DNA from: Clostridiales bacterium
GTDB lineage: Bacteria; Bacillota; Clostridia; Christensenellales; UBA1242
Assembly: GCA_015055815.1 (NCBI GenBank)
Contig: SVHM01000001.1
Span: 41,774 to 105,773, forward strand
DNA: 64,000 nt
Direction of reading: 5' to 3'
Within the stretch, counting starts at the first letter, position 1. Each line of letters opens with the position of its first letter. Below the pieces are notes generated by a model. That model did no database searches. It had not been told where the DNA came from and worked only from the letters and a program-made list of their open reading frames with translations. Below, piece after piece: positions 19,401 through 19,442 of this stretch. The position numbers and the translations under genes were made by a program.

Positions 19401-19442
19401 ATATAGTAAGTGTTCGCAAAAGACAACTTTTGCGAATAGTTT
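19401..19442 (+). repeat. Right att/dif-like site (S2), 11-6-11 palindrome
   Basis: TGTTCGCAAAA-GACAAC-TTTTGCGAATA at 19411-19438; the inner 10 bp of each arm are perfectly palindromic. The 22-bp left part is identical to 12809-12830. Confidence 0.75.

Follow-up and report, generated by a model that had tools for sequence, protein, structure and literature searches.

A putative dif site beside an XerS-like recombinase gene in a Clostridiales bacterium, with an adjoining integrase-less filamentous prophage that may have entered through the host Xer system

The known bacterial single-recombinase systems have been listed as XerS, XerH and XerL (PMC5357621, PMC9765430). The XerS/difSL system belongs to streptococci and lactococci (Le Bourgeois 2007, PMC1914069; Nolivos 2010, PMC2965235), in which difSL lies upstream of xerS and forms with it an experimentally proven module (PMC1914069). 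The difSL repeats are TTTCCGAAAA and TTTTCTTGAAA, and the site as a whole is reported to be asymmetric and 31 bp long, with an 11-bp central region (PMC5357621). In Helicobacter and Campylobacter, XerH is accompanied by difH, which follows the pattern TGAAAAC---A-TTTTCA, is situated near the skew peak and in many cases adjoins the gene of its recombinase (Carnoy and Roten 2009, PMC2731167). In Legionella, where the mobile element LME-1 is found, the dif site of XerL contains long uninterrupted inverted repeats and is located more than 400 kb from the recombinase gene (PMC9765430). Regarding the phages that exploit Xer recombination, CTXphi carries two attachment sites about 90 nt apart, attP1 with a 12-nt spacer and attP2 with a 7-nt spacer, which form a 150-nt forked hairpin in the (+) strand; one XerC-mediated strand exchange takes place and replication finishes the process, resulting in one new functional dif and two dead dif-like sites (PMC3089051). 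The present analysis concerns a 64,000-nt stretch of a Clostridiales bacterium (assembly GCA_015055815.1, contig SVHM01000001.1, positions 41,774 to 105,773 of the forward strand), hereafter the window, with positions counted from its first letter, in which a 34-bp palindrome, an integrated filamentous phage (inovirus) and the gene of an XerS-like tyrosine recombinase are found at one locus. The palindrome is most likely the chromosome dimer-resolution site (dif) of this bacterium, situated at the junction of the two replication arms, and sequence comparison makes it quite probable that the locus as a whole combines a chromosomal dif, its XerS-like recombinase and an integrase-less filamentous phage integrated by way of this host system.

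The palindrome (19408-19441) consists of two 14-bp arms around a 6-bp central region, AAGTGTTCGCAAAA-GACAAC-TTTTGCGAATAGTT, and would be at the same time the candidate chromosomal dif and the attR at the right prophage junction. A preliminary description of this DNA had delimited it as a 28-mer, TGTTCGCAAAA-GACAAC-TTTTGCGAATA (19411-19438), with two 11-bp arms perfectly palindromic over their inner 10 bp. The 6-bp spacer was confirmed and the 11-bp arms agree at 10 of 11 positions, but the perfect inner run is 9 bp long (TTCGCAAAA), since the tenth position is G against A. The 28-mer is unique in the window even when three mismatches are allowed, and TTCGCAAAA occurs four times in the 64 kb, in all cases at this locus (0.7 expected; none of 100 shuffles reached four), in agreement with the earlier observation that arm copies are confined here. 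The other repeats reported at that time could also be retraced. The 22 bp at 12809-12830 recur exactly at 19401-19422, with a spacing of 6592 bp, and the identity between the left and right junctions stops 1 nt into the central region. At the left end, a second arm, TTTTTCGAATA (12842-12852), follows a 12-nt spacer, GGCATTCCCATG, and further arm-like copies are found at 12958-12973 and, inverted, at 20718-20732, with TTTTGCGAATAGTTT present exactly at 19428 (plus strand) and 20718 (minus strand). The weaker homology that had been noticed further to the left of both copies corresponds to a strong promoter at the right end and to a degenerate copy of the same promoter at the left end. Two other explanations of the repeats were tried and rejected: an invertible segment bounded by a 25-nt inverted repeat (19428-19452 and 20708-20732), whose copy at the recombinase gene is a half-site only, and a transcription terminator, none being predicted.

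The distribution of the site was evaluated by a scan for TTCGCAAAA-N6-TTTNRCGAATA in one genome per species, from which 8-kb blocks were returned. The pattern was present in at least 120 assemblies, with one match each and every match coming from another assembly. Among the matches listed, nearly all belong to Clostridia (Lachnospiraceae, Christensenellaceae, Oscillospiraceae, Butyrivibrio, Roseburia, Eisenbergiella, Enterocloster and Defluviitaleaceae), and a minority to a few Erysipelotrichaceae and two Planococcus. The consensus is AACTATTCGCAAAA-N6-TTT(T/A)(A/G)CGAATAGTT, and in the 117 other genomes among these matches the conserved arms, AACTATTCGCAAAA and TTTTRCGAATAGTT, are 14 bp each, conservation extending beyond the search pattern to AACTA on the left and GTT on the right; as a two-arm search pattern the site can be written AACTATTCGCAAAA-N6-TTTWRCGAATAGTT. 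The central hexamer is the most variable part, with 69 variants in the 117 sites, so that inverted arms in a 14-6-14 arrangement are conserved around a variable centre, as in dif. Only 21% of the listed sites are found within long open frames, against a background of 91% of all bases, and relatives carry the site whether or not a phage is inserted, which amounts to a non-coding conservation independent of the neighbours. Dispersal of the arms, the outcome against which the preliminary description had warned, was not observed, since the window holds one full site with its arms in this locus only and the matches in the at least 120 assemblies come singly, one per 8-kb block.

The position of the site relative to nucleotide skew is also that of a dif. 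In the pooled blocks, GC skew averages +0.06 on the left side of the site and –0.07 on the right side, and the sign flips in the 500-bp bin at the site. When listed blocks with at least 1.5 kb on each side were considered individually, 32 of 58 displayed the (+,–) polarity and a single one the reverse; the former is the polarity expected at the terminus and therefore fits dif. In the window itself, the skew changes from +0.05 before the locus to –0.20 beyond it, and in this right-hand part the minus strand holds 94% of the coding capacity. As a separate observation, one Lachnospiraceae contig (L055) carries two full sites, at 1-26 and 1148-1173, 1.1 kb apart and in opposite orientation, which could be a small inserted or invertible segment.

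The relatives of this bacterium, whose recombinases are 71-86% identical and occur in the same gene order, provided both empty and occupied versions of the locus. The preliminary description had proposed that relatives lacking the element should retain a site here, and an intact one was indeed found at the same place in four of them. In L008 the phage-free site is AAACTATTCGCAAAA-GCCTAG-TTTTGCGAATAGTTT, between the YgjP and nucleotidyltransferase genes; in L014 it is AAACTATTCGCAAAA-GACAAG-TTTTGCGAATAaag, at the same position; in L011 it is AAACTATTCGCAAAA-CGCGAG-TTTTACGAATAGTTT, with a remnant of a phage gene adjoining; and in L172, which has no inovirus, it is AAACTATTCGCAAAA-GACAAC-TTTTGCGAATAGTTTG, with the central region and right arm of the window. 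Two relatives are occupied. L004 harbors a different but related phage in the same orientation, with a left junction composed of an arm, an 11-nt spacer and TTTTTCGAATAAG and a right junction at which a full site is preceded by a TTGACA-17-TATCAT promoter. In L001, a third phage (element B) is inserted the other way round, between two copies of a 19-nt right-arm sequence, CAACTTTTACGAATAGTTT, with the end of another element to its left. The coexistence of empty and occupied alleles indicates that the site is chromosomal and a recurrent insertion point. In the window and in the prophages of the relatives, the crossover point is confined to the initial 1-4 nt of the central region, and in the window, L004 and L001 element B one junction is a hybrid site, predicted to be dead, and the other a regenerated candidate dif, as in integrative mobile elements exploiting Xer (IMEX). 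It was also seen that L001 contains two related inoviruses (1-560 and 553-8346) arranged head to head around one full site, with their promoter ends facing it, a mixed array comparable to the CTX/RS1/TLC arrays of Vibrio.

These alleles allow the parts of the window site to be assigned. The GACAACTTTTGCGAATAGTTTG portion of the right arm (19428-19441, plus strand) is identical in the phage-free site of L172, so this arm is of host origin. The left arm (19408-19421, plus strand), in turn, would be phage-derived and correspond to the first arm (L1) of the phage, because its outer bases (AAGTG) are unlike the AAACTA seen in every relative, because it is joined directly to a phage promoter and because the same promoter-to-arm order is found in a free phage. 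The central region GACAAC (19422-19427) is the presumed place of strand exchange.

The element between the junctions is an integrated inovirus of 6,592 bp (12831-19422, plus strand), as indicated by the spacing of the repeats, by Zot and Rep homology and by a GC skew of +0.155; its exact boundaries are not placeable because they lie within the 22-bp repeat. It encodes a Zot-like assembly ATPase of 285 aa (13692-14549, plus strand) with 41-57% identity to the 'Zonula occludens toxin' of complete Inoviridae genomes (E down to 1e-90), for which no close relatives were found in IMG/VR, and a rolling-circle replication initiator (Rep) of 296 aa (17536-18426, plus strand). The latter matches Pfam Rep_trans below the cut-off (E = 9e-4), is 32% identical to the replication protein of Dulem virus 72 (E = 5e-27) and shares homology with the Rep regions found in the elements of L004 and L001. 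From 12.8 to 19.4 kb the genes are small and nearly all on the plus strand, several of them coding for small membrane proteins, and the combination of Zot homologue, rolling-circle Rep, small membrane proteins and a 6.6-kb genome is that of a filamentous single-stranded DNA phage. PHROGs provided no function for any phage open reading frame. The seven open reading frames of at least 100 aa contain no integrase, transposase or resolvase domain, and none matches a PHROG integrase, which upholds the earlier statement that the element encodes no integrase. Together with the insertions at the site, the empty alleles and the dif-like attachment sites, this absence argues for integration by the host Xer machinery, as had been proposed from the sequence of the window alone.

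The promoter at the right end, TTGACA-17-TATGAT (19366-19394, plus strand), has 11 of 12 consensus matches and a TG motif. In L001, L004 and the free phage L165, a corresponding promoter stands ahead of the first arm, and the unoccupied sites of L008 and L014 have none. The promoter is therefore that of the phage, and transcription from it would, in the circular form, cross the attachment region and continue into the phage genes. The attachment region itself is displayed at the left end of the prophage, where four arms are found in succession. The left junction (attL; 12816-12853, plus strand) is equivalent to attP1 of CTXphi and is predicted to be non-functional as double-stranded DNA. It comprises the first arm L1, AAGTGTTCGCAAAA (12816-12829), the 12-nt spacer (12830-12841) and a second, degenerate arm R1, TTTTTCGAATAG (12842-12853). 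After a loop of about 85 nt, a second dif-like site (12938-12973, plus strand), equivalent to attP2 and including the copy that the preliminary description had placed at 12957-12973, comprises the third arm L2, CTGTTTGAAATA (12938-12949), an 8-nt spacer, ACGGGGTC (12950-12957), and the fourth arm R2, TTTTGCGTATTAGTTT (12958-12973). The same two-site plan was observed in L004, L001 element B and L165, with first spacers of 10-11 nt and second spacers of 7 nt.

In single-stranded form, the region from 12816 to 12973 (plus strand) is predicted to fold into a hairpin of about 150 nt in which L1 pairs with R2 and R1 with L2. The predicted stability is –23.8 kcal/mol in the window (z = –5.2), –26.1 kcal/mol in L004 (z = –6.5), –30.8 kcal/mol in L001 element B (z = –6.9) and –23.4 kcal/mol in the free phage L165 (z = –5.0). 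When both strands of the three prophages were folded, the (+) coding strand was favored over its complement by 2-3 kcal/mol, owing to G-T pairs. The consensus fold of the four elements contains 31 pairs, of which 5 present compensatory changes, and the sequences of the outer stems are quite different yet still complementary. A pairing of two sites in the (+) single strand, of the type described for CTXphi, is thus predicted in all four elements, and from these folding models we infer that it is used. The free phage is a metagenome contig of 6,296 bp with all genes on one strand, a G2P-type Rep and no host genes, and a 127-bp terminal overlap shows it to be circular, with a genome of 6.2 kb. 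It contains, in one continuous stretch, the promoter, L1, a 10-nt spacer, R1, L2, a 7-nt spacer and R2, which means that the promoter-plus-arm end and the spacer end of the prophage are joined in the unintegrated genome and explains the strong promoter at 19366-19394. L165 was the only real one among 22 matches to a looser pattern in metagenome contigs; the two-site pattern itself, which does match L001 and L004, was found in neither IMG/VR nor the metagenome contigs, collections from which contigs matching it are evidently absent. A single-site pattern gave 8 matches in IMG/VR, all within coding sequence of unrelated larger phages, and these were discarded as chance.

Based on this arrangement, the following route can be proposed. 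One monomer of the 348-aa recombinase would bind each 14-bp arm of the host site, and strands would be exchanged at the edges of the 6-bp central region. The 6.6-kb phage, having no recombinase of its own, would use this host system by bringing in two dif-like sites about 85 nt apart, with arm gaps of 12 nt and 8 nt, and its packaged (+) strand would fold into the hairpin of about 150 nt, the stem of which would mimic dif. The recombinase would then swap one pair of strands beside the shared arm, where 1-4 nt of homology in the central region are available, and replication would complete the integration. On the left, the product would be a dead hybrid site (12816-12853) made of the host arm, the 12-nt phage spacer and the degenerate R1, and on the right a working dif would be regenerated at 19408-19441 from the phage promoter and L1 arm and the host central region and right arm. 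Since a single recombinase would bind both nearly identical arms, entry in either orientation would be possible. Catalysis by this recombinase, the role in dimer resolution, the single-stranded route and the exchange of a single strand are all points that we infer from sequence rather than observe.

The route shares with that of CTXphi a filamentous phage without an integrase, two dif-like sites (here with spacers of 10-12 and 7-8 nt), a dif homology limited to one flank of the central region and the presence of element arrays at the site (L001), and the window junctions are what the CTXphi route predicts. It differs from CTXphi and the XerCD system in that the host is Gram-positive and the XerS-like enzyme presumably acts alone, instead of XerC plus XerD. 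Additionally, the arm sequences are unrelated to those of CTXphi, the phage proteins are distant from known inoviruses, and the site is symmetric and was entered in both orientations, as seen when L001 element B is compared with the window and L004. The same site, enzyme and phage could, however, be engaged by integration of the double-stranded replicative form through the first site alone, as in VGJphi or TLC, with the hairpin serving as an origin or packaging signal, for example. The junction sequences are equally compatible with this possibility, and filamentous phages do carry hairpin origins and packaging signals in their intergenic regions. Nevertheless, the hairpin is made of four sequences resembling dif arms, in the 12/7 arrangement of CTXphi (PMC3089051), in four otherwise divergent phages. 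Moreover, the G-T wobble pairs favor the (+) strand, and a 10-12-nt spacer would be a poor duplex substrate where the host site has 6 bp. Entry as double-stranded DNA is thus rather unlikely, without being negligible, and entry as folded single-stranded DNA is preferred.

The enzyme that would act on the site is a tyrosine recombinase of 348 aa (20753-21799, plus strand; Pfam Phage_integrase, E = 2e-34), whose gene is located 1.3 kb from the site in the window; no second tyrosine recombinase was found in the 64 kb. Its best NCBIfam match is the equivalog XerS (NF003462), with 187.5 bits over the full length, ahead of XerA, XerC and XerD. Four diverse homologues, from Christensenella, Enterocloster, Erysipelotrichaceae and Oscillospiraceae, also match XerS best, with 180-217 bits against a cut-off of 267, the match being full-length for the Christensenella protein as for that of the window. 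The catalytic set Arg-Lys-His-Arg-His-Tyr is present, with GTGIRISE, KGGNK, HKLR and LGH aligning to the E. coli XerD motifs and the tyrosine of TTRKHY one residue off that of XerD in the alignment. Among solved structures, the best matches were XerD and XerA, and no XerH chain reached E = 1e-10. Recombinase homologues (42-67% identity) are encoded in 60 of the 120 listed 8-kb blocks, and in all 60 the site is upstream of the gene, at a distance of at most 250 bp in 26. The length of about 350 aa and the gene directly downstream of its site are thus those of XerS. The protein probably represents a sister group of XerS, and the system is assigned to neither XerS nor canonical dif, because it fails the curated XerS test and its site is unlike canonical dif.

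The likeness to difSL that had been suspected from the style of the arms was therefore substantiated by the XerS best match, by the position of the site upstream of the gene and by a Planococcus protein above the XerS cut-off at about 2 kb from the same type of site. Both systems present a recombinase of about 350 aa with XerS as best match, a site located upstream as one module and at the skew switch, and A/T-rich arms of the TTCnnAAAA ... TTTTnnGAA type. In contrast, the arms here are longer (14 bp) and nearly perfectly symmetric around a 6-bp centre, the protein scores below the XerS cut-off, and the hosts are Clostridia and not Streptococcaceae. With difH, the site shares palindromic arms ending in AAAA and TTTT round a variable hexamer, as well as the frequent proximity to its recombinase gene and the position relative to skew, but the arm sequence differs. 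As with LME-1 and XerL, the attachment site of a mobile element reveals a previously unrecognised dif, and long inverted repeats without interruption are common to both sites; however, LME-1 is not a filamentous phage and the Legionella gene is far from its site. In the literature, no report was found of phages exploiting difSL, no paper with TTCGCAAAA in this context, and none tying XerS, XerS-like systems, dif or Xer-exploiting elements or phages to Clostridia or Lachnospiraceae. The Planococcus (Bacillales) sites themselves are found at 609-634 of L045 and 6418-6443 of L103. The L045 protein (gene at 2584-3723, about 2 kb downstream of the site) reaches 399 bits and passes the NCBIfam XerS cut-off, which indicates that the XerS family and this type of site extend beyond both Streptococcaceae and Clostridia.

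It could be argued that the site has no role in dimer resolution, in which case the phages would still use this XerS-like recombinase. XerC and XerD have been reported as ancient and widespread in Firmicutes (PMC8136486), and the score below the XerS cut-off points in the same direction. On the other hand, the site coincides with the skew switch across about 100 listed genomes of several families, occurs once per block and not as a pair flanking an element, is set with its recombinase among varied neighbour genes and reproduces the layout of the experimentally proven difSL-xerS module. Regarding a dif of the classical type, to which the palindrome had been said to bear no resemblance, nothing beyond chance was found: the window contains no match within 8 mismatches of B. 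subtilis dif and a single 8-mismatch match to E. coli dif, about 43 kb away, and a XerCD core pattern with a TTATGTTAAAT-type XerD arm is not enriched in about 1 Mb of related terminus regions (3 found, 2.2 expected). A canonical dif elsewhere, which the preliminary description had named as evidence against its own proposal, was thus not detected in the 64 kb or in the equivalent regions of about 1 Mb. A site without function in dimer resolution is accordingly improbable, and dif remains the preferred identity of the palindrome.

The palindrome could also be an operator, bound by a phage repressor, LexA or a PadR-family protein and controlling the adjacent strong promoter, and not a recombination site. 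It is located 14 nt downstream of that near-consensus promoter, a half-site is found on the recombinase promoter, and lexA and a gene of the PadR family are nearby. However, no such promoter accompanies the unoccupied sites of L008 and L014, the arms are conserved with a freely varying spacer across families with unrelated neighbours, the site marks the skew switch, and prophage junctions fall inside the palindrome in three independent elements. The LexA box of Gram-positive bacteria has the layout GAAC-N4-GTTC, which the palindrome does not show. The LexA box and other operator readings were consequently rejected, being highly improbable. Insertion of the element by its own Rep endonuclease or another unrecognised phage enzyme, with incidental dif-like sequences, is scarcely credible even though most phage open reading frames belong to no recognisable family, given that three different phages are inserted within a few nucleotides common to all of them in one host palindrome, that every one of these phages carries mimics of it, and that the free phage carries such mimics too.

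Some points weigh against a chromosomal dif used by an XerS-like recombinase and exploited by the phage. The case rests wholly on sequence comparison, and the support for one site per genome covers 8-kb blocks from at least 120 assemblies. With 187.5 bits against 267, the recombinase does not qualify by score as a member of XerS, and the reported antiquity and spread of XerC and XerD in Firmicutes (PMC8136486) count here as well, so that a single-recombinase system and a sole dif at this site are putative. Purine-rich 7-mers point at the site at about 9 to 1, but they resemble ribosome-binding sites and follow gene orientation, and because of this confounding they were not counted as evidence of FtsK orientation; for the L. 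lactis motif GAAGAAG the strand bias is weak (205 to 115). As to the phage, the junctions alone cannot separate single-stranded integration of the CTXphi type from double-stranded integration of the VGJphi type, and the arms in the folded hairpin are still 12 and 8 nt apart instead of 6. The 22-bp identity of the junctions runs 12 nt past the conserved arm, which a simple exchange does not explain; given this identity and the sequence left of the left junction, which looks like a decayed phage promoter, the left copy may derive from an earlier copy of the same phage. Finally, three Inoviridae genomes ('bajarodino virus') related through Zot have no obvious matching attachment region and thus confirm the kind of phage but not its way of integrating.

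A broader proposition, namely that much of Clostridia uses an undescribed module of the XerS type, with one recombinase and a symmetric dif, and that gut filamentous phages enter it as folded single-stranded DNA with the 12/7 hairpin geometry of CTXphi, is in our judgement evenly balanced between true and false. If true, Gram-positive bacteria would have their first Xer-exploiting element of this kind, and a symmetric single-enzyme dif would be seen to allow phage entry in either orientation. The module would show where many gut Clostridia, abundant but for the most part uncultured, resolve chromosome dimers and thereby where their replication terminus lies, and would extend the XerS-type system well beyond streptococci, in which it has been treated as a family landmark (PMC1914069). 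The folding of single-stranded DNA into a false dif, so far known from proteobacterial XerCD hosts, would be a widespread and possibly convergent strategy of filamentous phages. In practical terms, the 34-bp motif could be used to orient and check metagenome-assembled genomes, would account for contig breaks at the locus, and could help to connect gut inoviruses with their hosts, an assignment that is otherwise difficult; one enzyme and one site could also provide a compact recombination tool for Clostridia. A single purified protein and short oligonucleotides would suffice to test each step.

Besides the full site, a half-site, AAACTATTCGCAAAA (20718-20732, plus strand), is located at the recombinase promoter (predicted at 20680-20708), immediately after the predicted –10 box. 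All clade members retain it, and about 7 of 33 more distant genomes whose full site has moved away (L077, L080, L101, L132, L136 and others) also have it upstream of the recombinase, with no more than one mismatch. This half-site may be an autoregulatory binding site. Between the site and the recombinase lies a nucleotidyltransferase-like gene (CD_NTase_C; 19720-20601, minus strand) that matches the NCBIfam anti-phage nucleotidyltransferase far below the cut-off (E = 3e-12), with PF26305 found on orthologues. The gene always holds this position in this clade (L001-L014 and L168-L172); many other Clostridia have the site immediately next to the recombinase gene. Possibly, a defence-type gene has become fixed here at a hotspot of phage insertion. 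Further out, an ABC transporter, a PadR-family protein and YgjP (11841-12527) are encoded to the left of the locus, and lexA, miaA, mutL and mutS to its right; the G+C content of the window is 23-31%.

The prophage also carries, as cargo, a gene for a DUF2726 membrane protein (16572-17357, minus strand; Pfam PF10881, E = 9e-12), which is present in all three prophages and, in the window and L001, is on the strand opposite to the core phage genes. The remnant in L011 is a lone DUF2726 gene (7978-8439) beside the otherwise empty site and suggests repeated phage gain and decay at this locus. A 94-nt perfect inverted repeat (17665-17758 and 19180-19273), in which part of the Rep gene is copied in inverted form near the right end, could have arisen from rearranged head-to-head tandem prophages, as in L001, or could be an assembly artefact. 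In nearly every clade member, 2-4 tandem copies of TTGCATAGTA, 12-15 nt apart, occupy part of the interval that separates the site from the 3' end of the nucleotidyltransferase-like gene (window 19610-19631; L001 8593-8614; L004 8817-8839; L008 8899-8920; L172 8814-8864; L168 36-66), L011 having one exact copy. These repeats look like a protein-binding array, possibly with an accessory, regulatory or fork-arrest related function. Lastly, the contigs of two close relatives, L168 and L170 (1-200 and 1-225, respectively), end about 200 bp past the nucleotidyltransferase-like gene, just short of the expected site, as would be consistent with the assembly breaking where some cells carry a phage at the site and others do not.

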